From Candidatus Yanofskybacteria bacterium (GTDB taxonomy: Bacteria > Patescibacteriota > Minisyncoccia > 2-02-FULL-40-12 > IGHO2-12-FULL-4): a stretch of DNA of 64,000 bases. The position numbers and the translations under genes were made by a program. Below, piece after piece: positions 1 through 63,910 of this stretch (within the stretch, counting starts at the first letter, position 1; each line of letters begins with the position of its first letter). The notes beneath the pieces were generated by a model. It did not search any database, was not told the DNA's origin, and saw nothing but the letters and a program-made list of their open reading frames with translations. The stretch covers positions 22,728 to 86,727 of the forward strand of contig JACPNK010000006.1 in assembly GCA_016185525.1 (NCBI GenBank). The letters run 5' to 3'.

Positions 1-121
1 AGCGGAGCGCGCATAGATCCGTGGGAGATTACCACGTTGATAGGATGCAGGTGTAAGTCCGGTAACGGATTCAGCCGAGCATTACTAATAGATCAATTAA
101 TTCCTTGCAAGATTAAGCCTA
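1..121 (+). rRNA. rrl: 23S rRNA, 3' terminal segment (gene continues upstream of window)
   Basis: Near-exact match to the conserved 23S 3' end (GTTGATAGG..GGTGTAAG..TACTAAT..GATTAAGCCT, cf. E. coli ACGTTGATAGGCCGGGTGTGTAAGCGCAG...GGCTTAACCTT). Confidence 0.75.
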
Positions 122-160
122 AATTTAACTTTACCCAACAAAAAAAACGAGCAAGACATT

Positions 161-372
161 GTGTACAGTGTAAAGGAGTTATACTGCGAGTGCTCCACCT
201 GATCCCATTCCGAACTCAGAAGTGAAATCTCGCAAGGCCGATGATACCCAGCTCTTTTGACCGCAGCACGACATTATTTTTTGTAGACTTAGGGTCTATA
301 GTAATAAAGTTGTTGCAGTGTTGAGATCAAAAGGGCTGGGAAAAGTAGGTAACTCCTCTACACTGTATGCAA
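161..372 (+). rRNA. rrf: 5S rRNA with a ~90 nt insertion in the 3' half
   Basis: Core CCACCTGATCCCATTCCGAACTCAGAAGTGAAA (195-227) is nearly identical to the bacterial 5S loop B/helix III. The 5' segment GTGTACAGTGTAAAGGAGTTA pairs with the 3' TAACTCCTCTACACTGTATGC (helix I). The insertion at 251-340 is closed by CCAGCTCTTTTGA/TCAAAAGGGCTGG. Confidence 0.55.
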
Positions 373-4440: not shown

Positions 4441-7400
4441 ATGGCTACTAGAAAACTATTTTCAAAATACGAGCCGGACGTTTTAGAAGCTCCTAATCTG
4501 GCTCAAGTTCAGTTAGATTCCTACGATTGGTTTTTTAAAGAAGGATTAAGAGAACTGCTCAAAGACATATCACCGGTAAAGGACTGGACGGAAAAAGAAT
4601 TTGAACTTCACTTTGTAGATTATATTTTGGAAAAACCCAAGTTTGACGAGAGGGTTGCCAGAGAAAAAAATATCACCTACGAAGCTCCGTTGCGGATCAA
4701 AGTGGAGCTGAAAAACAAAAGAACCGGCAAAACAGTTGACCAAGAGCTCTATCTTGGAGATTTCCCCCTGATGACGCCCAGGGGCACTTTTATTATTAAT
4801 GGGGTGGAGAGAGTAGTCATTTCTCAACTTATAAGAAGTCCGGGAGCCTTTTTTTACGTTGTCAGATCAACCGGCCTGAGAAATCTTTTTGGCGCCAAGA
4901 TTGTGCCGTCAAGAGGCGCCTGGCTTGAATTTGAAACCGAAAGCAGCGGAGTCATATCAGTCAGGATTGACCGTAAAAGAAAGTTAGCTGCTACCGGATT
5001 GCTTCGGGCTTTTGGCATAGGCAAGGATGAAGATATAAAAAAGCTTTTTACTGACGTTGATACCGATGAAAGCATGAAATATATTTTAGCCACTATCGCT
5101 CAAGACCCCTCCTCTTCAGAAGACGAGGGTCTGATCGAAGTCTATAAACGCATTCGTCCCGGCGATCCGGCTACAGCCGAAAATTCCAGACAGATGATTC
5201 ACAACATGTTTTTTAACTTTTCCCGTTATGATCTTTCCAGGGTGGGACGACACAGAATGAATCAGCGCTTCGGTTTAGATTTTGACTTTTCGGAAAGCAA
5301 CAGGACCCTGAAGCCGGAAGATATTGTCGCCACCTTAAAAGAGATTATCCGTTTGAACAATAATCCTTCCGCCGCTTCTGACAACATTGATCATCTTGGC
5401 AACAGGCGTGTCAAGGTTTTAGGCGAACTCTTGCAAGACAAGTTGAGAGTTGCTTTTGCTCAAATGGAGAGAATCATCAAAGACAGAATGAGTACGATGG
5501 ATGTTGACACTATCTTGCCTTCTCAACTTATTAATCCACGTCCTTTTGTTGCCAGACTTAAAGAATTTTTTGCTTCCGGACAACTTTCACAGTTCATGGA
5601 TCAGTACAATCCTCTTTCTGAACTGGAACACAAGCGCCGTCTGTCCGCGATGGGTCCTGGAGGTTTGACTAGAGAAAGAGCCAGTTTTGAAGTTAGAGAC
5701 GTTCATCCTTCCCACTATGGCAGGATTTGTCCGATTGAAACTCCGGAAGGCCCGAACATTGGTTTGGTTGGCTATCTTTCGTTATATGCCAAAATTTCTC
5801 CTCTCGGTTTCATCTTGACCCCTTACAGAAAAGTCAAAAATGGCAAAGTTACAGACGAGGTTTTGTATTTGGACGCCAGTGAAGAAGAAAGACACATCAT
5901 TGCTCCCGCCGGAGTAAAAATAGGCAAAGACGGCAAGATACTGGAAGAAAAGATACCGGCAAGAATTCACAGCGAAGCCGGTATTGCTTCGGCTAGCGAG
6001 ATAGATTTTGTGGATGTTTCTCCAAAACAGCCTTTTTCAGCGGCAACCTCGCTTATTCCTTTTTTGGAGCATGATGATGCAAACAGGGCGTTGATGGGAT
6101 CAAATATGCAAAGACAGGCGGAACCTTTAATCAATCCGCAATCTCCTTATGTCGGCACCGGTTTGGAAGAAAAGGTTGCCAGAGATTCCGGCTTGATGGT
6201 TGTCGCTGACGAAAGCGGAGAAATTGAAAGTGTGGACGCTTCTCACATAGTTTTAAAAACAGCTAAAGACGAGAAAATCAGATATGAACTGGTTAAGTTT
6301 CTGAAGTCAAACGCTTTCACTGCGATTAATCAGAAGCCTCTTGTTAAAAAAGGAGAAAAAGTTAAGAAGAATCAGGTTTTGGCTGACGGCCAGGCGACTG
6401 ACGGCGGTGAGCTGGCTTTGGGCACCAATCTCTTGGTGGCCTTTACTTCTTTTGAGGGTTTGAACTTTGAGGATGCCATTGTTATTTCTGAACGCTTGAT
6501 TAAGGAAGATGTTTTCACGTCGCTTTACATAGAAGATTACTCAACGGATGTCAGAGAGACAAAACTTGGACCTGAAATTACGACTTACGACATACCAAAT
6601 GTCGGAGAAGAAAGACTTAAAGAGTTGGATTCTGAAGGCGTAATCAGGGTGGGGGCGGAAGTCCGCTCGCAAGATATTCTGGTTGGCAAGATCTCTCCAA
6701 AAGGGGAAAGCGATCTCACTGCGGAAGAGCGTTTGCTAAGAGCCATTTTTGGAGAAAAATCCAGAGATGTTAAAGACACTTCGCGCAGATTGGACTATGG
6801 CAGACAGGGCAGAGTGGTGGGGATAAGAGTTTTTTCCCGAGATCAAGGTGACAGGTTGCCGGCCGGCGTTATTAAAACCATCAGAGTTTCCATCGCTCAA
6901 ATGAGAAAAGTCCAGGTTGGCGACAAGCTGGCCGGGCGGCACGGCAACAAAGGCGTTATCTCGGCGATTTTACCGGAAGAGGAAATGCCCTTTTTGGAGG
7001 ATGGACGGAGAGTGGATATGGTTTTAAGTCCCTTGGGTATCATCTCCAGAATGAACATCGGCCAGGTTTTGGAAACCCATCTCGGCTGGGCGGCTCAACG
7101 TTTGGGCTACAAGGCTACTGTTCCGCCAATGGCCGGACCGACCGAGGAGGCAATAAAAGTGGAGCTAAGAAAAGCCGGCTTGCCGGAAGACGGCAAGGTC
7201 CAGCTTTACAACGGGCGCACCGGATTGCCTTTTCACCAAAGGTCAACCGTCGGGATTATCTATTTTATGAAACTTTCCCATATGGTTGAAGACAAGATTC
7301 ACATGAGATCAATCGGGCCCTATTCTTTAATTACCCAACAGCCTCTCGGCGGAAAAGCCCAATTCGGCGGCCAGAGGTTTGGAGAAATGGAAGTTTGGGC

Positions 7401-28355: not shown

Positions 28356-29210
28356 TCAGAACTTCCGGGAGGCACCAACGCCCACGTTGCCGGCGCGACC
28401 GCCGTCCCAGCTATCGATGCGGAGGCCGCGCCCGTCGAAGCGGCCGACACACGAAACGTCGCCAGCGAAGGCCGAGTCGGTCTTCACTGTCCGCTCCGCG
28501 CAGGCTGCCCATTTGGATCCGTTGGGACGAACACCAGTCTTACGGAAGACGAGGATGTCCTTGGTCGTTTCCATTATCGTCGATGGCACTTCGTACTCGG
28601 GCGGAAGCATCGCCACCTGCTCTTCGGGCGTCTTGTTCGTCGAGTTAGGAACGATCTCCGTATGGAGCAGGTAATAGCGAAGCCGCATGGTCGCCACATC
28701 GGTGTGGGGCTGGCCTCCGTGCCAGGGGTTGCTGTTGAAGTAGAACTTCGGCTGGCCCGTTGCCGGATGCAACTGAAGCCACTTGGCCACCGTGAGAGGC
28801 GAACCGTTGATGGCGGTCAGGCCCAGGAATGCGAAGTGGCAGTCCTTCACCACCTTGCCGCAGAGCGGGCAGGTGGAATTGAGGATGTCCTCACCCCACG
28901 GGAACTTTCCGGCGTCGCGGATCTGCTTCTTCGTGAACTTGGCGTCGTAGTAGCTCATCCAGTCGGCAACATCGAAAATGTTGCGACCGAGAACCATACG
29001 AGCCATGCGCGATTCGATAGAACCGATGAGGCCTTTTCGCAACATCGCCTGAGCGATGCGGCGAGTGTACTCGCTGTCGGTGCGGAAGAGATCGAAGAGA
29101 TCGCGGGGATTGCCTCCCTCACTGGCAATCGCTTTCTCAAGCGACGCCACGCTTTCCTCGAACTCACCCTTGGTCATGGTCCAGAGACCGCTTGTCTTGG
29201 CTTGTGTCAT
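28356..29210 (-). CDS. DGR target protein 2 (variable C-terminus)
   Basis: GC-rich ORF; ATG at 29210 with GGAG RBS (the longer ORF to 29279 is unlikely); C-terminus DSAFAGDVSCVGRFDGRGLRIDSWDGGRAGNVGVGASRKF is VR2. Confidence 0.7.
   Translation of the reverse strand: MTQAKTSGLWTMTKGEFEESVASLEKAIASEGGNPRDLFDLFRTDSEYTRRIAQAMLRKGLIGSIESRMARMVLGRNIFDVADWMSYYDAKFTKKQIRDAGKFPWGEDILNSTCPLCGKVVKDCHFAFLGLTAINGSPLTVAKWLQLHPATGQPKFYFNSNPWHGGQPHTDVATMRLRYYLLHTEIVPNSTNKTPEEQVAMLPPEYEVPSTIMETTKDILVFRKTGVRPNGSKWAACAERTVKTDSAFAGDVSCVGRFDGRGLRIDSWDGGRAGNVGVGASRKF
28359..28475 (-). repeat. DGR variable region VR2
   Basis: Differs from TR2 almost only at positions that are A in the TR2 sense strand (T on plus). 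Confidence 0.75.
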
Positions 29211-29480
29211 AACACATCTCCTTTTTTTGTCGGTTTGCTCTCCATGTCCTTTAGGGACTCTTGAGAGCGGATGCCCCATGCCGTGGGGCTGCGGTCCTGC
29301 CTACCGGCAGGCAGGCTTGTCTCAGAAGTTGAGACAAGTATGCTGGAAACCATTGTTTAGGCATCCAAAATGCTTGTCTCAAGTAGAACCTTATTGTAAG
29401 GAACTACATCATAATTATATCATCTTGTAAGTGTGCCTGTCAATAGGGTATTTTACTCGGGACTAGGGAATGGACTGGGT

Positions 29481-31298
29481 TTACACTTCTATGACTACCG
29501 GCAAGACCATGGGTCTTTTTTCTGTTTTTTGGAAGAGAAACTTGCCGATTTCTTCGCGGAGATTGTCTTTAAGATAAGCGGTGTCAACCCTGCCGACAGC
29601 GCTGGTTTTTTCAACAACAAATCTGGCCTTCTTTCTGACTTGAGCAAGGAGTTCTTTGTTGTCTTTCAAATAAATAAAACCACGGGAGATGATATCCGGA
29701 CTGGTCAGTACTCGGCCGGTTTTTGTATCTATGAGAATGACTATGACAAACATACCGTCTTCGGCTAGAACTTGTCTGTCTCTCAAGACTACGTTGCCGA
29801 CATCGCCGATGCCTAAACCGTCGACTAGTATCGGATTGCTGGCGACCGTTCTTTTGTCAAACCACCACCTGATCTTATCTGAAATCGGGTTTTCTAAATC
29901 GGGGTTGCTTAGATGAATAACAGAGCCGTTGTCGGCAATAATGATGTTTTCTTCGGGAATTCCTTTGGTCTGGCCTATTTCTGAATGGCTGACCATCATT
30001 GAATATTGTCCATGGATTGGCATGAGGATTTTTGGGTTCATAACTTCCATCATGTGTCCCAAGTCTTCTCTCTGAGCATGTCCGCCGGCGTGTATGTCCA
30101 TCATTTGGTAGTGGTAAACTTTCATGCCTGCTCTGTAAAACATATCTTTTAAATTTTGCACGGCTCTTTCATTGCCCGGCACGGTGGAAGAGGAAAAAAT
30201 CAAAGAGTCTTTTTTAATCAGACGAATAAAACGGTGTTCATGGTTGGCAATACGCATCAAAGCGGCGTTGCTTTGTCCCTGCGCGCCGGTGGCGATGACT
30301 GTAATTTTAGACCGAGGATAATCATTTACCTGATTGGATGTAATCTGGGTGTCTTTTTGCATTTTTATATAACCCAGCTCCTTGGCTATTTCAACGTTTG
30401 ACTTCATGCTGTAGCCTTCAAAAACAACCTTCCGGCCGTATTTTTCCGAAAGCCAGACTATTTGCTGGATACGGTCAACCATGGAAGCAAAAGTTCCAAA
30501 GACAATCATCTGCTTTGATTCTCTGAAAATCAGCTCCATGTTGTCCATGATAGTTTTTTCTGAAATTGAGTGGCCTTCTCTTTCTGCGCCGGTTGAGTCG
30601 GCCATTAAGACTGATACGCCTCTTCTGCCGAGTTCTCTTAGGTGGTCAAGGTTTATGGGTTGGCCGTTGGTGGGCGAATGGTCAAACTTAAAATCAGCCG
30701 TATGAACTATTGTTGCTTTGGGTGTTTTGATGAATAAAGCAAGGTCGTCAGGTATGTTGTGGTTAACATGAAAAAATTCAACTTCAAAATAGTCTCCGAA
30801 TTTTGCGGTGTCATCGGCTTTTACGATATGGAATTTTAGTTTTGGCAAATGGGGGAATTCTTCATGTCTTTTGGCGACGATGCCTCTGGTCAAAGCGCCT
30901 CCGTAAATATCCGGATTGCCAAGTTTTTCCAGCAAGTAGGGCAGAGCGCCGATATGGTCCATGTGGCCGTGAGTTAAAATCAAGCCTCTTATATTCCCTC
31001 TTTTTCTTTCCAGATATTCGGTGTTGGGGATAATGTAATCTATCCCCAAGTGGTCTTCGTCGGGAAACTTAAAACCGGCATCAATTACCAATATGTCGTC
31101 TTTGTATTCCAGGAGACACATATTTTTTCCTATCTCGCCGAGTCCGCCCAGGGGAATAATTTTAAGAGTTTCTTCCCCGTGGTCGGAGGTCATTTTTGTC
31201 GGTCCTAAAGCTGGGGGAGTTCTCCTCGCGGGGCGCGGATTGGGAGATCTTTTCCAAGAAGATCTTCTTGGTTTTTTAGCTGTAGTTGTTTCTATCAT
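29481..31298 (-). CDS. rnj: ribonuclease J (beta-CASP metallo-beta-lactamase)
   Basis: LKIIPLGGLGEIGKNM; HGHMDHIGALPYL; beta-CASP region. Confidence 0.85.
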   Translation of the reverse strand: MIETTTAKKPRRSSWKRSPNPRPARRTPPALGPTKMTSDHGEETLKIIPLGGLGEIGKNMCLLEYKDDILVIDAGFKFPDEDHLGIDYIIPNTEYLERKRGNIRGLILTHGHMDHIGALPYLLEKLGNPDIYGGALTRGIVAKRHEEFPHLPKLKFHIVKADDTAKFGDYFEVEFFHVNHNIPDDLALFIKTPKATIVHTADFKFDHSPTNGQPINLDHLRELGRRGVSVLMADSTGAEREGHSISEKTIMDNMELIFRESKQMIVFGTFASMVDRIQQIVWLSEKYGRKVVFEGYSMKSNVEIAKELGYIKMQKDTQITSNQVNDYPRSKITVIATGAQGQSNAALMRIANHEHRFIRLIKKDSLIFSSSTVPGNERAVQNLKDMFYRAGMKVYHYQMMDIHAGGHAQREDLGHMMEVMNPKILMPIHGQYSMMVSHSEIGQTKGIPEENIIIADNGSVIHLSNPDLENPISDKIRWWFDKRTVASNPILVDGLGIGDVGNVVLRDRQVLAEDGMFVIVILIDTKTGRVLTSPDIISRGFIYLKDNKELLAQVRKKARFVVEKTSAVGRVDTAYLKDNLREEIGKFLFQKTEKRPMVLPVVIEV

Positions 31299-31350
31299 AA
31301 ATTAAAAAATTGAATTAAATTTAGAGATGTTTAAAACTATTTATTTTTTT

Positions 31351-31455
31351 GGTGCAGTATTCTTGAATTAGTCCGAACGCATTTCGCCGCCACAGGCGGC
31401 GAGGAAGTCCCCTCGCGAAAATTCGGAAAGGCGGCGGAGCCACACCGCTGACAAT
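31351..31455. repeat. att-like site L (core GGTGC + arm), inverted copy of 32408-32512
   Basis: Reverse-complement identity to the central block. Confidence 0.7.
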
Positions 31456-31490
31456 TTCAAGTTTTTCTTTGGCGGCAAGTTCTTTAAAAA

Positions 31491-32304
31491 CTATTTAGTA
31501 AATTTGAAAGTTGAAAAAACTTGCGATAGATAATTAAATAATTTTGTTTTATCTAATTCATCTAGCTGTTTCTTTTCGGATGAACTGATTCCTGTATAAA
31601 GTTCTAGGGCGATCCAGTAGCATCTTTCGTTGCGATAGGTTCTGTAAGCTTGTTCGCGACGATTACCAAGATCGATATCGTCATAGGCGTAATCAGTTCC
31701 GTTAACCGATACTTGGGTTGTGTTTTTTTCCATGTAGACCGTTGCTAAACAATCTTTTTGGGATGTATCCTTTTCTGGCACAACTTGCAAAAGCGCGGCG
31801 TCGAGATTTGTGTTTACAAATTCGTCCCCCGTATAGAAAAGGCAAATTGCACTTTTAGGGCTACAATAAGACGTTCCGTCGACCATTGAAAAAGATTTTT
31901 GTTGGTTGGGTCTCAGATCTGTCGAAAGGGTGTAAAACTTTTCCGGGAACTTAAATTCAAAACCGTAATCACGATTATCATAAGCTCTCCAGCTTACCAA
32001 CTGGTCCTGTGACGGTGGTTGCGTATTAAATGCTTCTCTTTTTCGAAAAAGAGTGTTCCCTAAGTCAAGGCTAAATAGGAGTTGAGAGATAAAAAAAACA
32101 ACTAAAAGTGAGAACAAAATCCAATGCCATTTTTTAGTAAAACCACCTCTAACCGCAACCAATGTTCCCCAGACAATCAGCCCGCCTATTGGTATCAATC
32201 GAGCAAGCGATAAATTACCTTTCAGTAAGAAGTATATTGCTAAAGCAGAAGCCACCAGTAAAAGCAAGGCTATAACACCAGCAAATTTTCTATTTTGGTT
32301 CATA
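31491..32304 (-). CDS. hypothetical secreted/membrane protein
   Basis: Start MNQNRKFAGVIALLLLVASALAIYF; the longer table ORF to 32738 reads through the repeat block and is likely spurious. Confidence 0.5.
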
Positions 32305-32407
32305 TAATTATTGTACAAACTTAATTTCGACCTTATGATTAAAAAATTTTCTTCCCCCAAAATTAAAACATGGTTCGAGCCGATGTTTTTCTCCGGGCTC
32401 TTTTGCG

Positions 32408-32608
32408 GTTTTGAGCGGTGCAGCTCCGCCGCCTTTCCGAATTTTCGCGAGGGGACTTCCTCGCCGCCTGTGGCGGCGAAATGCGTTCGGACTAATTCAA
32501 GAATACTGCACCAGACAGGAAATTGCAAGTTTGAAAGGTTTGCCTCGCTTCGCTCGGCGACTAATTCGTATTGGATTTTCGGGGCAAAAAAGAATTGGCG
32601 ATTTTGCA
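32408..32608. repeat. central att-like block (inverted attP-like): arm X' + core GCACC (32508-32512) + arm Y
   Basis: Left half is the reverse complement of 31351-31455; right half is the reverse complement of 34011-34112. Confidence 0.7.
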
Positions 32609-32651
32609 TTTTGGGGGAAGAAAATTTTTTAATCCTTAATCCAAAAACAAT

Positions 32652-34160
32652 ATGAAATATATACTTTACGCTCGTAAATCTACCGAGGAGGATGACCGAC
32701 AAGTGCTTTCGATTCAAGCGCAACTCGAAGAGTTGCAAGAGTATGCCGCCAAAGAAAAACTTGAAATTGTCGCCTCGTTTTGCGAGGCGAAAACCGCAAA
32801 AGAGCCCGGGCGAATTAAATTCGCTGAAATGTTGTCATTGATTGAGAAGGGGAAAGCAGACGGAATTATTTCTTGGCACCCCGATAGATTGGCTCGTAAT
32901 TCTGTGGACGGAGGGAAGATTATTCATTTCGTAGATCGTGGCTTGATTCATTCCCTAAAATTTCCCACTTTCTGGTTCGAGGCAACACCACAAGGTTTGT
33001 TTATGCTTCAGATTGCTTTCGGTCAATCAAAATATTTTGTAGATAATTTGCGAGAGAATGTGAAGCGCGGTTTGCGACAAAAGATACGAAATGGAACATG
33101 GCCCGGTTGGGCTCCGGTTGGCTACCTAAATAACCCTAAAACCCGTGGTATAGACATTGATGTGGACAAAGCACCTAAAGTGCTAAAAATGTTTGAACTG
33201 TATGCCACCGGAGCGCATACGCTCCACTCTCTCGCAAAATGGTGCGATAACAATAACCTACGCGGCAATCTTGGGAAAAAACTTGTTATCGCAAATATAC
33301 AGAAAAATCTACAAAATATTTTCTATCTCGGTTTGATGAAGTGGAAAAGGGAAATTTTTGAGGGAAAACACGAGCCGTTAATCTCAAAGAAACTTTTTGA
33401 TAAATGTCAGGAAGTTATGGCGAAACGCGGTAAAGTGCAGGAGGTTCGCAAACATCATTTTGCTTTTCTTGGCCTTTTAAAATGTGCCTCTTGTGGTTGC
33501 TCAATCACCGGAGAGCGACAGAAAGGACATAATTACTATCGTTGCACGAAAAAGAAAGGGCCATGCCAAGAAAAGCATTATCTCCGCGAGGAAGTGTTAA
33601 CCGAGCAGATCAAAAACTTCTTGCAAAAAGTTTCTTTGTCGAGCCAAGACACCGAGAAAGTTTTGGCGGCGTTGGATAGCGAACAGGATAAAGCACGGCA
33701 AGATGCACAAGGCGAGATTAGTATTTTGAAAGAGCAATTAGGAGAGGTTGAAACAAAACTTCAAAAACTATTAGACATCTATCTTGCCGACACTTTATCC
33801 ACAGAAGAATATGCCGCCAAAAAGAAAAGTTTGCTGTATCAAAAAATGTCTTTGAATGAGAAAATCACCGACTTTGAGACAAAAGGATTGTCTTGGCTCG
33901 AACCGGCTCGTGATTTCGTTTTATCTTTGAATCAAGCCACGAATCTGCTTTCCCCTCCCAATCTTTCTGGAATGACAACATTTCTAAAAAACATCGGCTC
34001 GAACCATGTTTTGCAAAATCGCCAATTCTTTTTTGCCCCGAAAATCCAATACGAATTAGTCGCCGAGCGAAGCGAGGCAAACCTTTCAAACTTGCAATTT
34101 CCTGTCTGGTGCCCAGGGGGAGATTTGAACTCCCACGCTCTTACGAGCACACGGCCCTGA
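32652..34160 (+). CDS. large serine recombinase (integrase-type)
   Basis: N-terminal resolvase domain YARKSTEEDDRQ (catalytic Ser), zinc ribbon CASCGC...CTKKKGPC, coiled-coil; the 3' end reads through att site R into tRNA-Leu, so the true C-terminus is uncertain. Confidence 0.8.
   Translation: MKYILYARKSTEEDDRQVLSIQAQLEELQEYAAKEKLEIVASFCEAKTAKEPGRIKFAEMLSLIEKGKADGIISWHPDRLARNSVDGGKIIHFVDRGLIHSLKFPTFWFEATPQGLFMLQIAFGQSKYFVDNLRENVKRGLRQKIRNGTWPGWAPVGYLNNPKTRGIDIDVDKAPKVLKMFELYATGAHTLHSLAKWCDNNNLRGNLGKKLVIANIQKNLQNIFYLGLMKWKREIFEGKHEPLISKKLFDKCQEVMAKRGKVQEVRKHHFAFLGLLKCASCGCSITGERQKGHNYYRCTKKKGPCQEKHYLREEVLTEQIKNFLQKVSLSSQDTEKVLAALDSEQDKARQDAQGEISILKEQLGEVETKLQKLLDIYLADTLSTEEYAAKKKSLLYQKMSLNEKITDFETKGLSWLEPARDFVLSLNQATNLLSPPNLSGMTTFLKNIGSNHVLQNRQFFFAPKIQYELVAERSEANLSNLQFPVWCPGGDLNSHALTSTRP
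34011..34112. repeat. att-like site R (arm Y inverted + core GGTGC overlapping the tRNA-Leu 3' end)
   Basis: Reverse-complement identity to 32508-32608. Confidence 0.7.
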
Positions 34161-34193
34161 ACCGTGAATGTCTGCCAATTTCATCACCTGGGC
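34107..34193 (-). tRNA. tRNA-Leu (anticodon CAG), CCA encoded
   Basis: GCCCAGG acceptor stem, anticodon stem-loop CACGG-TTCAGGG-CCGTG, long variable arm, T-arm GGGAGTTCAAATCTCCC, 3' CCTGGGCACCA. Confidence 0.85.
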
Positions 34194-34207
34194 TTTTGCG
34201 ATGCGGT

Positions 34208-35140
34208 TTAGAGTTTTTTAAAACTCTCAATTATTTCCGTGGAGTCGGGGTCAACTCCCAGTTGTTGGGCGAGTTGAGCTGATGTTGTGGAAGCTAAAAT
34301 GTATTGGCCAAGTACTTTTTCCAGACGGGTTTTGCCCTCAATTTTAATCAATACATTCTCTGTGTTATATTTTTTCAGGAATTTATAAAATTTTTCTAAA
34401 TTAAGTCGGTCTGTCGTTTCTTCTTCGGAATCTTCTAAAATCAAATAGAAAAACCTTTGATCTTTTTCTTTTACTCCGGCTATTTCGTTGTGTACTGCTT
34501 CGGGCAGGAAACTTGCAAAAGCGTGGATTTTAGAGTTCTCATTAAAAAACTTTTTCCAAAATAGTCCGAGAAATCTCCAAGAGTAAGAAGAATATATAAT
34601 AGGAGTTTTTGCGCCTATGGCTTCAGAGATGCTGGCACCAAAGCCAAAATTATCCTTTTCTTGGGAGAATAGCGGAGAGTTAAAAGTACTTTCAATTATA
34701 TCAGAGTGGGAAAATAAAGTCAACGTGGAGGCCAGCATTGAACCAAAGGCGTTTCTGGGGTTGAGGTTTTGGTTGGGGAGCAGGATTAAGATTACGCCGT
34801 CTTTTCGGGCCAGTTCGGCAAGTCTGCCGCCGCTGGTTATAACTACTGTTTTAATATTTTTTTCCATAGCCGATTCATACGAGGCGATGGTTTCTTCGGT
34901 GTTGCCGGACCAGGAAGTGCATATGACCAGATGTTCTTTTGATGCCCAGTGGGGGAGATGGCGCGCGCGGTTTATATAGACTGCGATATCTTCCAACCAA
35001 AGCATTGAGATGGCTTCGGCAGGCATAATTGAACCGCCCATTCCGCAGAAAATTATACGGGAATAATCCGAAGGATTAATCGGAGTTATTCTTTTGGCAA
35101 CATTTAAGCCGTCTATTAGTTGTTGTCTAACTTGGACCAT
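34208..35140 (-). CDS. bifunctional phosphoglucose/phosphomannose isomerase (SIS domain)
   Basis: IIFCGMGGSIMPAE, ICTSWSGNTEET SIS motifs. Confidence 0.7.
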   Translation of the reverse strand: MVQVRQQLIDGLNVAKRITPINPSDYSRIIFCGMGGSIMPAEAISMLWLEDIAVYINRARHLPHWASKEHLVICTSWSGNTEETIASYESAMEKNIKTVVITSGGRLAELARKDGVILILLPNQNLNPRNAFGSMLASTLTLFSHSDIIESTFNSPLFSQEKDNFGFGASISEAIGAKTPIIYSSYSWRFLGLFWKKFFNENSKIHAFASFLPEAVHNEIAGVKEKDQRFFYLILEDSEEETTDRLNLEKFYKFLKKYNTENVLIKIEGKTRLEKVLGQYILASTTSAQLAQQLGVDPDSTEIIESFKKL

Positions 35141-59294: not shown

Positions 59295-59347
59295 TTTTTA
59301 CCTTTTTACCACCTCGCCAAAAGCGAGGTTTACTTTTGGAGGATTCG

Positions 59348-59432
59348 CCTAATGGTATGGCACACGCTTGGAAAGCGTGCGGGAGCAATCCCTTACAGGT
59401 TCGACTCCTGTATCCTCCGCCAAAATTCGGAA
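59348..59432 (+). tRNA. tRNA-Ser (anticodon GGA), CCA encoded
   Basis: GGAGGAT acceptor, anticodon stem-loop CACGC-TTGGAAA-GCGTG, long variable arm, T-arm CAGGTTCGACTCCTG, ATCCTCCGCCA. Confidence 0.8.
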
Positions 59433-63638: not shown

Positions 63639-63910
63639 TCCCCGGTAGCTCAGCGGTAGAGCGGCTCGCTGTGAAATAACGCAGCTACCTAGAGAAATCT
63701 AGGATGAAAAACTTTGGGATAACGGTGAAACCTTTTTTAAAATGGTAACACCGTGGGAACCACGTAAAATGCTAAGGCATCACGTGGGCGCCGTAGAGAC
63801 TAGATACCGAAGCACCCAACAGTAGGGTGGTGATATAGTCCATCCCACTACGAAAGTAGTGGACAAATGTAACGAGAAGGTCGTAGGTTCGATCCCTACC
63901 CGGGGAGCCA
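63639..63910 (+). tRNA. tRNA (tentatively Asn, anticodon GUU after splicing) interrupted by a group I intron
   Basis: 5' exon TCCCCGGTAGCTCAGCGGTAGAGCGGCTCGCTGT; 3' exon TAACGAGAAGGTCGTAGGTTCGATCCCTACCCGGGGAGCCA; acceptor halves pair perfectly. Confidence 0.6.
63673..63869 (+). ncRNA. group I intron (197 nt) in the tRNA anticodon loop
   Basis: Follows a U in the exon and ends in G; contains the R-like GTAGAGACTAGA and S element GATATAGTCC. Confidence 0.55.

Follow-up and report, generated by a model that had tools for sequence, protein, structure and literature searches.

The question raised by this locus is why a small integrative element residing at the 3' end of a tRNA gene carries, between its cargo gene and its recombinase gene, a further complete attachment site in inverted orientation. 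Within the window, i.e., the whole stretch of 64,000 nucleotides from Candidatus Yanofskybacteria bacterium that was analysed, positions 31353-34110 (~2,757 bp) are an integrated copy of such an element, an assignment in which we have high confidence. Read on the tRNA strand, the locus is composed of tRNA-core-Y (attL type), the recombinase segment, rcY-core-rcX (a complete attP, inverted), the cargo segment and X-core-flank (attR type), with the coordinates of all parts given in Table 1. Exact self-comparison reproduced the reverse-complement identities which the first-pass annotation had claimed for the two terminal sites and the central block, whereby the arm X pair aligns over 105 nt at 96% identity (100 nt at 98%) and the arm Y pair over 101 nt at 100%. 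The three att-like sites with a common core were recovered likewise, GCACCA being shared by the tRNA 3' end, the central block and site L, and the adjoining tRNA-Leu(CAG) was identified by ARAGORN as an intact gene. The cargo gene, too, is where it had been placed, with its end one base earlier than the annotated 31491-32304. Four short exact inverted copies (boxes P, Q, rcB and A') fill the remaining central region and the left end; these boxes were absent from the first-pass annotation. An Rfam search of positions 30500-35000 (E<=1) gave no match, the tRNA-Leu itself also being unreported, and the arms thus correspond to no known RNA.

Table 1. Parts of the integrated element and of the adjoining tRNA gene (window coordinates; rc, reverse complement).
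Feature	Position	Strand	Remarks
Core, site L	31350..31355	-	GCACCA (31355->31350), then former tRNA-downstream flank AAAAAAATAAATAG...
Arm X, left end (attR-type X-core-flank)	31350..31454	-	inverted repeat with 32409-32513
Box A'	31450..31477	-	exact copy of recombinase nt 93-120 (GCCGCCAAAGAAAAACTTGAAATTGTC); rc of 32744-71
Cargo gene, 270 aa	31491..32303	-	ORF
Boxes P (32337-63), Q (32365-90), rcB (32393-412)	32337..32412	+	exact inverted copies: P of the recombinase upstream box (rc of 32608-34), Q of recombinase nt 1336-1361 (rc of 33987-34012), rcB of recombinase nt 139-158 (rc of 32790-809)
Internal inverted attP	32409..32608	+	arm X 32409-32513, core GCACCA 32508-32513, arm Y 32508-32608 (rc of 34012-34112)
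Box rcP, promoter-like shared upstream box	32608..32634	+	17 nt before recombinase ATG
Large serine recombinase ORF, integrated form, 502 aa	32652..34160	+	
Box A, hairpin m (32772-32789), box B	32744..32809	+	recombinase codons 31-53
Box rcQ (33987-34012) and right-end arm Y (34012-34112)	33987..34112	+	encodes recombinase residues ~446-487; arm Y with core forms the attL-type site tRNA-core-Y
tRNA-Leu(CAG)	34107..34193	-	final six bases GCACCA (34112->34107) are the core

That this layout is an artefact, either an assembly chimera with inverted joins or a set of ordinary dispersed REP-like repeats, is extremely improbable. Assemblers can mis-join inverted repeats which are longer than k, and the Logan contigs of this population are broken at the core; against this, the same five repeat pairs recur at equal offsets in dozens of loci that were obtained in unrelated studies and with differing assemblers (MEGAHIT, SPAdes, IDBA-type scaffolds), and the repeats carry element-specific variants. 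Moreover, the 64-kb window holds just two copies of each arm, and 100 shuffles gave 0 matches, hence the arms are not REP-like, a reading which the earlier annotation had itself considered. The comparison with related loci comprised 80 genome loci and 9 metagenome loci, and revealed the same layout at fixed positions around homologous recombinases (66-92% amino acid identity) in dozens of independent Patescibacteria assemblies, the motif map showing a single constant order of parts. Among the 42 loci whose flank is long enough, 41 possess the Y inverted repeat and 32 the X repeat, and a tRNA gene adjoins the recombinase 3' end in 64 of 71 loci, with 23 isoacceptors being represented and recombinases at 88% nucleotide identity occupying different tRNAs. 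Within an element the copies of X and Y are ~99% identical, as compared to 36-56% (ungapped) between elements, and the P boxes likewise co-vary within an element. On either side, sequence of the element extends precisely to the core, and the left flanks are unrelated between loci, which bears out the earlier attL...attR reading, and the internal inverted attP-like site is present and constant across the family. As the layout recurs family-wide, the footprint of an unusual integration or duplication pathway, as formerly suggested, is not needed to account for it. Hundreds of copies occur in one-genome-per-species collections, several per genome; IMG/VR yielded two partial recombinase fragments only, and no description of the family was found in the searchable literature. 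With 2-3 kb per copy, this element family is very common in Patescibacteria (candidate phyla radiation) and apparently undescribed, and among the mobile elements of this radiation it may rank first in frequency.

The recombinase is the sole constant gene of the family, the cargo genes being unrelated from element to element; there is no conserved second gene and no candidate directionality factor. Three domains were identified in it, i.e., PF00239 Resolvase (E 2e-22, residues 4-150; YARKST, Ser10), PF07508 Recombinase (172-259) and PF13408 Zn_ribbon_recom (272-324). Matches to PDB entries (4kis, 6dnw and 9dxh) are weak yet significant, models of CcrB and XisF are matched with NCBIfam scores far under the cut-offs, and no solved or named member reaches more than a very low identity. 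In the window, the cargo ORF matched neither a Pfam nor an NCBIfam family, and its protein possesses a membrane anchor at the N-terminus. The cargo ATG has the same P/rcP box 33 nt upstream. A scan for promoters and terminators gave counts not exceeding the shuffled expectation and no support for long 5' leaders, and for this reason the idea of a 100-bp mRNA panhandle was dropped.

As had been noticed earlier, the recombinase ORF reads through arm Y into the tRNA. This can be explained by the arms Y and X being the 3' coding end of the recombinase gene, a point that the first-pass annotation did not contain. The conserved protein ends with ...FPVWC (codon 487, nt 34112), the final 15 codons of the integrated form being tRNA antisense, and tblastn homology of the recombinase continues through arm Y. 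What is new here is that the full-length recombinase ORF spans attP, with Y encoding residues ~454-487, the core encoding W-C and X encoding a tail of ~31 amino acids. In rcX, 11 stops were counted in the recombinase frame, as compared to 45 and 36 in the other two frames, and X types differ from each other by in-frame indels. An ORF test showed the left arm X of the window to be open in the recombinase frame on the plus strand, where it reads SILELVRTHFAATGGEEVPSRKFGKAAEPHR and then stops, the stop codon of the full-length ORF being taken from box A' at the X boundary. The reconstructed junction ORFs comprise 514-522 amino acids and stop <=3 nt from the X edge in ~26 of 36 elements, and recombinases bearing the X-encoded tail were found as such (P0069 and further ORFs). 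Conservation of the first 10 residues of the tail is confounded with the DNA-binding site in X. Integration exchanges the X-encoded tail for tRNA-antisense codons; both the attP-spanning gene and this exchange belong to that part of the account which, taken as a whole, we regard as very well founded. Given that the gene spans attP, the central block is, on its minus strand, a spare version of the gene's final ~65 codons in inverted orientation.

Near the other end of the gene, the A-m-B stretch is constrained at the nucleotide level, and hairpin m shows compensatory changes. Box A and hairpin m were considered as a terminator on the antisense strand; their fold is stable (z = -2.8), but the T-tract lies away from the stem, which leaves this idea speculative. 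Two further candidates were discarded: a conserved small protein expressed from the internal copy is called by gene finders, but the repeat-boundary ATG exists in only 14 of 46 loci, and a recombinase-cargo fusion upon inversion would require the minus-strand frame to be open from the central block into the cargo gene, as it is in the window copy only (1 of 36).

The core consists of the last acceptor-stem bases, the discriminator and CCA, 4-8 nt being common to the sites, and it co-varies with the tRNA end (GAGCCA with tRNA-Asn, GTACCA with tRNA-Arg(gcg), CCACCA with Ala/Leu). Site L, at the far end, has just GCAC(CA) and no partial tRNA repeat. Crossover most likely occurs at A73-C74, a register with which every R site and 33 of 36 L sites (those that read GCAC) agree, while in the remaining three (L063, L036, L005) an earlier register fits or later mutations are present. 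A palindromic GC crossover, which would permit deletion between inverted sites, is disfavoured, as R sites (L041, L032) retain the tRNA's own GT at positions 71-72. As to the arms, their consensus sequences place the start of GTTCGA 18 nt before GCACCA in the tRNA arms and 23 nt before it in the X arms, while the flank is without consensus; the distance between the core and the T-loop-like motif GTTCGRAC of arm X thus exceeds that of the genuine T-loop by 5 bp. For the LI integrase, the DNA motif recognised by the zinc-ribbon domain was reported to be shifted 5 bp towards the centre in attB as compared to attP (PMC3783163). Judged from the arm consensus sequences, the offset seen here is the attP/attB geometry of large serine integrases. 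With the same high confidence as stated for the gene end, since it is part of that whole, the target half-site is taken to be the generic T-arm and acceptor end of a tRNA, with the flank half-site unconserved. Such a generic half-site explains insertion into 23 isoacceptors, and it would enable one integrase family to enter nearly any tRNA with a core-matching discriminator (A73; G73 in one subfamily) and C74.

The crossover position bears on the idea that the locus is a composite of two units which were inserted successively at one tRNA, namely a recombinase unit bounded by Y terminal inverted repeats and a non-autonomous cargo unit bounded by X terminal inverted repeats. Each free circle would then possess a palindromic att site, and the central attP would be a mere junction of neighbours. 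Several loci look as expected from this: repeated insertion at one tRNA is seen (L012, L030), two or three cargo units follow each other without recombinase between them (L057, L062, L033), one locus (L039) holds a cargo-less 70-bp rcX-X palindrome, and in another (L064) the recombinase unit lies between two tRNA arms. Nonetheless this origin is judged highly unlikely, as palindromic att sites could not be religated by a non-palindromic crossover at A73-C74, as suggested by the R and L sites described above. Furthermore, the order of tRNA, recombinase unit, cargo unit and flank is invariant, as are the orientations, the conserved tail and stop of the recombinase ORF depend on X, an arm which in the composite would be part of the other unit, and the P boxes that co-vary within an element belong to both halves.

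For the spare attP copy of the single integrative element, a function as ON/OFF switch of the recombinase gene by self-inversion is suggested, tentatively and as somewhat less than an even bet. This proposal assumes the flank side of attB to be irrelevant to the enzyme. If so, tRNA-core-Y would still look like attB to it, while the internal site would be an intact attP, and as both are mutually inverted, the integrase alone, or host homologous recombination over the 101-bp repeat, could flip the recombinase segment. In the flipped (ON) state the gene would be co-directional with the tRNA and would have regained its X-encoded tail, while in the usual (OFF) state it would be truncated and would face tRNA read-through. 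An active enzyme would then flip the segment repeatedly until the OFF state is reached; the usual arrangement would thereby become an absorbing state, and its dominance would be accounted for. Excision by L x R would yield a 2.76-kb circle carrying two inverted attP. The wider proposal, i.e., a self-inverting integrase gene that flips without a directionality factor, is transcribed together with the tRNA in its full-length form and finally settles in the silent one, and an internal attP that also reacts with other tRNA genes, is put forward with slightly more reserve still.

Flipped forms of the recombinase segment do exist: in L084 a complete flipped isomer adjoins a tRNA, L081, L086 and L087 belong to this type as well, and a further one (L095) was derived from an assembly with k=127, i.e., k exceeding the repeat of ~100 nt. 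The recombinase is in canonical orientation in ~50 loci and the flipped form amounts to no more than a few percent (none of the 80 genome loci, one of 120 protein clusters), with most flipped isomers coming from assemblies where k may be smaller than the repeat length. Of the two halves which the first-pass annotation had proposed to be invertible, the recombinase half is thus found in both orientations (L084, L095), while the cargo half is inverted in none of ~55. Tandem arrays (L012, L030, probably L083 and possibly L096) are taken to reflect re-use of attL as attB, and a recombinase segment with tRNA-Ala arms on both sides (L064) suggests that the internal attP may be active on another tRNA. 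Canonical large serine recombinases are not known to recombine attP with attL; for the family described here such a reaction may be assumed from the unconserved flank side and the tandem arrays. The flips could be explained by host homologous recombination without the integrase, and in the flipped state the ORF overruns the X edge by a variable 0-30 codons, which is untidy for a designed ON state. The switch also leaves boxes A', rcB and Q unexplained, as well as the single cargo orientation, for which it would be necessary that only the A-X-core-Y-Q copy of attP is used for integration.

Another view is that the element is the same, with its internal inverted attP being without switching role. 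The free form would be a circle similar to that of the 2-micron plasmid, its two long inverted repeats would be kept identical by gene conversion and the occasional inversions would be by-products of host homologous recombination, while the copy itself may persist as an operator between two divergent promoters or through difficulty of loss. Copies which are near-identical within an element and diverged between elements are as gene conversion predicts, the block is positioned exactly between two P boxes upstream of divergent genes, flipped forms are rare, and the position of the stop following the tail is not conserved in the internal copy. On the other hand, the copy is kept in 41 of 42 loci with recombinases diverged down to 66% amino acid identity, which points to selection, ~50 bp would suffice for an operator in place of 200 bp matching exactly the last ~65 codons, and a symmetric two-attP circle should integrate via either site, yet the other cargo orientation was encountered in 0 of ~55. 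We consider this view rather unlikely, albeit the least so among the rivals to the switch. Far less probable is a role of the block as a splint, as known for the internal complementary region of DIRS elements, whereby the termini rcX and rcY of a single-stranded copy would anneal side by side on X-core-Y and allow for circularisation or end regeneration. Both termini do have their complement in the block and would be brought together at the core, and the arms are re-homogenised within each element; however, the element is without a gene for reverse transcriptase, HUH nuclease, Rep protein or ligase, the sole protein common to the family, a serine recombinase, acts on double-stranded sites, and the arms are more simply understood as coding sequence plus att half-sites. 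When the well-founded and the tentative parts are blended, the integrated element equipped with a self-inversion switch is the best explanation overall and, as such, a reasonably probable one.

The junction pattern expected of the excised circle had 0 matches in viral contigs and 7 in metagenome contigs, and no excised circle was recovered. Integrated copies that are flipped or rearranged account for six of these matches (L082 and L085 being recombinase-deleted or truncated), and the seventh (L083) is probably a tandem array. The junction of L096 is as expected of a circle, with a tandem array fitting too, and in L086 (2,702 bp) both contig ends meet precisely at the core, for which a flipped integrated copy would account equally well. 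An empty tRNA-Leu site was not recovered either, as exact look-ups of the two flanking host proteins gave only short Logan contigs, which break at the core or inside X. Both negative results count against the explanation preferred here.

A serine integrase family having the generic tRNA 3' end, read via the T-loop, as its natural target bears on the evolution of integrase specificity and on the search for multi-site integrases as tools. An attP inside the integrase ORF, together with its inverted spare, offers a testable answer to the question of how an integrase is controlled in a two-gene element without directionality factor. Each element carrying a different single cargo gene behind a common promoter box, a route of gene exchange in very small genomes is plausible. 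If the internal attP does react with other tRNA genes, these elements would drive tRNA-to-tRNA chromosomal inversions in Patescibacteria.

Among known systems, the large serine integrases (Listeria A118/LI integrase, SPbeta SprA, CcrAB, XisF) share the Resolvase, Recombinase and zinc-ribbon domains with the enzyme described here, as well as att sites with few bases in common and a motif located 5 bp nearer to the centre in attB than in attP. Their attP x attB reaction is unidirectional, excision needs a separate directionality factor, and polarity is determined by an invariable crossover dinucleotide of 2 bp. Unlike them, the present family targets a generic tRNA 3' end instead of one locus, has one attB half-site that is apparently sequence-independent, harbours attP inside the integrase ORF, carries a second, inverted attP and lacks a candidate directionality factor. 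In SSV-type archaeal elements, attP likewise resides within the ORF, and integration splits the tyrosine integrase gene into two large parts; here it is a serine recombinase gene from which the last ~31 codons are severed, and a spare inverted copy of the severed end is present, while SSV elements carry no such copy. Among serine-invertase switches (Hin, the Gin/Cin G and C segments, shufflons), those of the Hin/Gin/Cin type employ a small enzyme (~190 aa) with a C-terminal helix-turn-helix and a Fis-bound enhancer. Similar to Hin, Gin and Cin, a segment with the recombinase gene lies between inverted sites and is found in both orientations, inversion swapping the 3' end that is joined to a constant gene body, and the nucleotide-constrained element in the 5' coding part recalls the enhancer position of Hin and Gin. 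The enzyme here, in contrast, is a three-domain integrase of 502 aa, the sites are attP and attL rather than two hix or gix sites, it is the recombinase's own gene end that would be switched, the whole unit is also an integrative element, and A-m-B would at best be a candidate enhancer. The yeast 2-micron plasmid is a free circle that isomerises, and its recombinase is a tyrosine recombinase; the free circle predicted here would resemble this plasmid in having two unique segments between two identical inverted repeats with the recombinase target, and would differ from it by its serine recombinase and by having no replication function. DIRS elements, which employ a reverse transcriptase and an RNA intermediate, share the internal block complementary to both termini and differ in that no reverse transcriptase or other polymerase is encoded here. 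As opposed to REP/MITE repeats, whose many dispersed copies are not tied to a particular gene, every locus shows the arms at constant places with respect to the recombinase gene. Finally, tycheposons were described as small cargo-bearing elements at tRNA 3' ends with variable cargo and successive insertions that push older copies outward; they mostly use tyrosine recombinases, and their integrase is specific for one tRNA, with an att site of ~40 nt leaving partial tRNA repeats (bioRxiv 10.1101/2020.12.28.424599). The position beside the 3' end of an intact tRNA, repeated insertion at one tRNA and variable cargo are common to both, while the serine recombinase, the core of 4-8 nt, the 23 isoacceptors hit by one close-knit family and the internal inverted attP set the present elements apart.

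Exact alignment of the tRNA-Leu locus reproduced the repeat structure described in the first-pass annotation: the X arms of the left end (site L) and of the central block are reverse complements over 105 nt at 96% identity (98% over 100 nt), the Y arms of the central block and of the tRNA end (site R) over 101 nt at 100% identity, and the core GCACCA at the tRNA-Leu end recurs in all three sites. The tRNA-Leu(CAG) was located at the right end as annotated, and the neighboring ORF indeed encodes a three-domain large serine recombinase. The cargo ORF is likewise present, its end being 32303 instead of 32304 (270 aa), and a family search with it returned no match. That the arms might be repeats found elsewhere was not borne out, as the window contains no further copy of X or Y. 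Self-comparison of the window revealed that the remainder of the central region is likewise built from exact inverted copies (see table). An open frame of 415 aa leads from the recombinase start (antisense) through the central block into the cargo gene; this junction is in-frame in the window copy only (1/36 elements) and probably fortuitous. The tRNA-Leu(CAG) is an ARAGORN call with a normal class II fold by eye; searches with the Rfam tRNA model, run at E<=1 on 4.5 kb and at the gathering threshold on the whole window, missed it, whereas a tRNA-Ser(GGA) was reported by this model. Elsewhere in the window, the 3' end of 23S rRNA is followed by 5S rRNA, a group I intron match (Rfam RF00028, 55 bits) lies near the end, and a 307-aa hypothetical ORF of 58-63% G+C, as compared to ~40% elsewhere, is probably foreign DNA.

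Features of the window and inverted pairs of the family (rc, reverse complement)
Feature	Window position	Inverted counterpart	Strand or remark
X arms	31350-31454	32409-32513	
Y arms	32508-32608	34012-34112	
Box P	32337-63	32608-34	27 nt directly upstream of recombinase gene
Box Q	32365-90	recombinase nt 1336-1361	
Box rcB	32393-412	recombinase nt 139-158	
Box A'	31450-77	recombinase nt 93-120	adjoins left X arm
Cargo ORF	31491-32303		
Recombinase	32652-34160		
Recombinase codons 31-53	32744-32809		
tRNA-Leu(CAG)	34107-34193		minus
ORF on internal copy	32409-32611		minus
415-aa open frame	31491-32738		minus
23S rRNA 3' end, 5S rRNA	1-260		
307-aa hypothetical ORF	28356-29279		minus
tRNA-Ser(GGA)	59338-59419		
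Group I intron match	63663-63862		
Family, X pair	left X arm	-230..-140	offsets from recombinase start
Family, 28-mer	adjoining left X arm	+92..+119	offsets from recombinase start
Family, pair	-304..-277	-44..-17	offsets from recombinase start
Family, pair	-275..-250	+1334..+1360	offsets from recombinase start
Family, Y pair	-144..-44	+1360..+1460	offsets from recombinase start

Relatives of the recombinase number in the thousands; identity is 78-92% for the best 120 protein clusters, among which the named members belong to Patescibacteria. A scan of one genome per species identified more than 530 loci, 80 of which were fetched for comparison. In 64 of the 71 loci containing the recombinase 3' end, a tRNA on the opposite strand abuts or overlaps this end, whereby 23 isoacceptors are targeted (Leu with all five anticodons, Arg, Gly, Tyr, Lys, Ala, Val, Asn, Ile, Phe, Gln, Met and Glu). 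Different tRNAs are occupied by recombinases 88% identical at the nucleotide level, and single genome bins harbor several copies of the element at different tRNAs. When each locus was compared with itself, identical inverted pairs emerged at constant offsets from the recombinase start; of the 42 loci in which the whole gene is preceded by a left flank of 1.8 kb or more, 41 have the Y pair and 32 the X pair. As the contigs span many studies and several assemblers, an assembly artefact was ruled out as the source of this layout, which is a family architecture rather than a local accident. Full-text literature searches on serine recombinases, Patescibacteria/Parcubacteria/CPR, tRNA and inverted repeats in combination returned no description of such an element. 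The cargo ORFs, which run in the opposite direction to the recombinase gene, are nearly all mutually unrelated (SAM methyltransferases, an HD hydrolase, a radical SAM enzyme, DUF218, an FAD oxidoreductase and membrane-anchored secreted proteins among those sampled), and every cargo gene is bracketed by the shared P box on one side and box A on the other.

Homology among the family recombinases (tblastn) extends through arm Y to residue 487-501, and all homologues finish with FP-x-W-C followed by tRNA-antisense residues, the TGG codon of this W being the complement of CCA. Excision was mimicked by joining each recombinase gene via the core to the far-left X arm of the same element, which yielded ORFs of 514-522 aa (518 aa with the tail SILELVRTHFAATGGEEVPSRKFGKAAEPHR for the window copy), whose stop lies at most 3 nt from the distal X end in ~26/36 elements. 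Across rcX, 11 stops fall into the recombinase frame, mostly the terminal one, as compared to 45 and 36 in the other frames; furthermore, the two main X types are separated by a 12-nt in-frame indel, and another element contains an in-frame insertion of 51 nt. With the recombinase frame open through rcX and its stop at the X edge, the full-length gene thus spans attP. Integration swaps the last ~31 recombinase codons for whatever the tRNA antisense encodes, and the central block, read on its minus strand, is a spare of the last ~65 codons, with the repeat limits as coding-segment limits. An ORF of 65-110 aa on the internal copy is routinely called by gene finders (proteins P0122-P0240), following the pattern M-RNRQFVF...WCSILELVRTHF...EPHR...; an ATG exactly at the repeat boundary occurs in 14/46 loci, in the main sub-clade only.

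All loci were aligned on the core, and the tRNA arm consensus was found to comprise only features universal to tRNAs (...GGTTCGAnTCC...(acceptor)...GCACCA), while the flank outside site L showed no consensus whatever. Ahead of the core, AAATGCGTTCGRACTAWTTCAAGAATACT is conserved in the X arm, where GTTCG begins 23 nt ahead of GCACCA; the GTTCGA of the T-loop begins 18 nt ahead of it. For LI integrase, the motif of the zinc-ribbon domain is located 5 bp nearer to the centre in attB than in attP, and the same shift was proposed for other serine integrases (PMC3783163). The shift between X and T-loop follows exactly this rule, hence X behaves like the half-site of a P-type site and the tRNA T-arm like that of a B-type site, which explains how one integrase family fits nearly any tRNA with a matching end. 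Variant cores of sub-families match their tRNA (GAGCCA, tRNA-Asn; GTACCA, tRNA-Arg(gcg); CCACCA, tRNA-Ala and some tRNA-Leu). Judged from the aligned sites, crossover most likely occurs at discriminator-C74: GCAC is read in 33/36 L sites, the remaining three being in disagreement, and the R sites of loci L041 and L032 retain the tRNA's own GT at positions 71-72. Since Y starts with CA, the encoded CCA end is supplied by the inserted element; the empty tRNA-Leu site would read tRNA-GCACCA-AAAAAAATAAATAG.

In an alignment of 65 loci (A1), codons 31-53 of the recombinase gene comprise box A (27 nt, almost free of variation), the 6-bp hairpin m and a conserved box B. Hairpin m is paired in 97.7% of the alignment cells and includes two covarying pairs (CG 29, UA 24; and CG 23, GC 19, UA 11), one covariation altering the amino acid (Q to C); its score was reached by none of 500 shuffles. 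This stretch has the look of a nucleic-acid element inside a coding region, and in the predicted circle boxes A and B would flank a giant inverted repeat as they flank m in the gene. From the homologue P0108 (573 aa), a precise deletion bounded by direct repeats (AAKE, TAKE) has removed 16 residues, KLEIVASLCEAKTAKE, and with them hairpin m as well as parts of boxes A and B.

One of the two alternatives raised in the first-pass annotation was that each half of the element is invertible. Metagenome contigs were scanned with a pattern matching solely where rcX comes after rcQ-rcY-core, and seven contigs matched. Locus L084 is a complete element, integrated at a tRNA, whose recombinase segment is inverted: P adjoins rcY-core-tRNA, and the central site is what the recombinase gene runs into. 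Three further contigs (L081, L086 and L087) belong to this type. An assembler with k shorter than the repeat may traverse it wrongly, hence a case with longer k was sought and found in L095, a MEGAHIT contig with the order recombinase-rcQ-rcY-core-rcX-B-rcQ-rcP-cargo-A-X-core-flank. Because its k (127) exceeds Y (~100 nt), the flipped form is real, and the recombinase segment does occasionally invert; the form is rare (0/80 genome loci, 1/120 protein clusters, namely P0069). As an inverted cargo segment was found in none of the loci compared, the proposal was supported for the recombinase half (L084, L095) and not for the cargo half. In L012, L030, L083 and L096, a second element's X arm follows on the recombinase 3' end; these loci are best read as tandem arrays in which a newcomer was inserted at the resident's tRNA-core-Y, thus attL still serves as a target and is re-used. 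In L064, tRNA-Ala arms flank the recombinase segment on both sides, as would be expected when the internal attP recombines with a second tRNA gene (chromosomal inversion); here (4799-6600) the segment is bounded on one side by tRNA-Ala(cgc) and on the other by a tRNA-Ala 3' fragment together with tRNA-Ala(tgc), 3' ends inward. Further variants lack cargo (L039) or the central core (L025) or carry two or three cargo units (L057, L062, L033). The serial units (P-Q...cargo...A') are located 1-2.5 kb upstream of the recombinase with no recombinase gene between, and L057 has a decayed X-rcX palindrome at their joint. At several loci (L019:6440-6640, L057:4080-4300, L064:6400-6620, L080:1750-1960) the element abuts a 35-60-nt 3' fragment that is of the same tRNA type but stems from another copy, and the intact tRNA follows a few to ~70 nt beyond; this suggests that elements may sometimes carry along a piece of the former host's tRNA. 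Among Logan contigs from the same population as the window (L088-L092), those from four sequencing runs stop at most a few bases away from the tRNA/Y core, and the RNase J contig begins 21 nt inside X. The L089 break is the one that a k=31 graph imposes; the other three come earlier and might reflect a second branch, e.g., an empty site.

A serine integrase with attP within its own ORF integrates the element at tRNA 3' ends, and the element carries an internal inverted attP in addition. If the flank half of attB is irrelevant, internal attP and own attL would constitute an ordinary inverted attP x attB pair; the products would again be attP and attL, so that the integrase would need no directionality factor to flip its own gene again and again. 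In the flipped state, the gene would regain the X-encoded tail and lie behind the tRNA, in the same direction; in the common state it would be truncated and would run against read-through from the tRNA. If the enzyme were active only or mainly in its full-length form, the system would be pushed into the common state and remain there, which fits the observed orientation bias of 95-99%. This self-inversion switch is put forward tentatively, as a conceivable reading that falls somewhat short of being probable. Its main rival assumes a 2-micron-like circle whose inverted repeat is passive and kept alike by gene conversion, the flips being the work of host recombination. Within an element, both X copies and both Y copies are ~99% identical; between elements, mean ungapped identity is 36% (X) and 56% (Y), with indels, and the P boxes ahead of both genes share matching element-specific variants. 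The repeat copies either undergo frequent gene conversion or are renewed during the element's life cycle. Switch and passive repeat alike leave boxes A', rcB and Q unexplained, and neither accounts for the exclusive use of the A-X-core-Y-Q version of attP for integration.

The window enzyme belongs to the large serine recombinases, yet is very distant from any studied one, and the element works in a manner like phage-type serine integration. In lifestyle it is similar to tRNA-targeting islands such as the tycheposons (bioRxiv 10.1101/2020.12.28.424599), but it misses their defining features, i.e., a tyrosine recombinase, one tRNA per integrase and long att identity. Finally, its split recombinase ORF recalls SSV-type elements, its invertible recombinase segment the Hin/Gin switches and its predicted circle the 2-micron plasmid.
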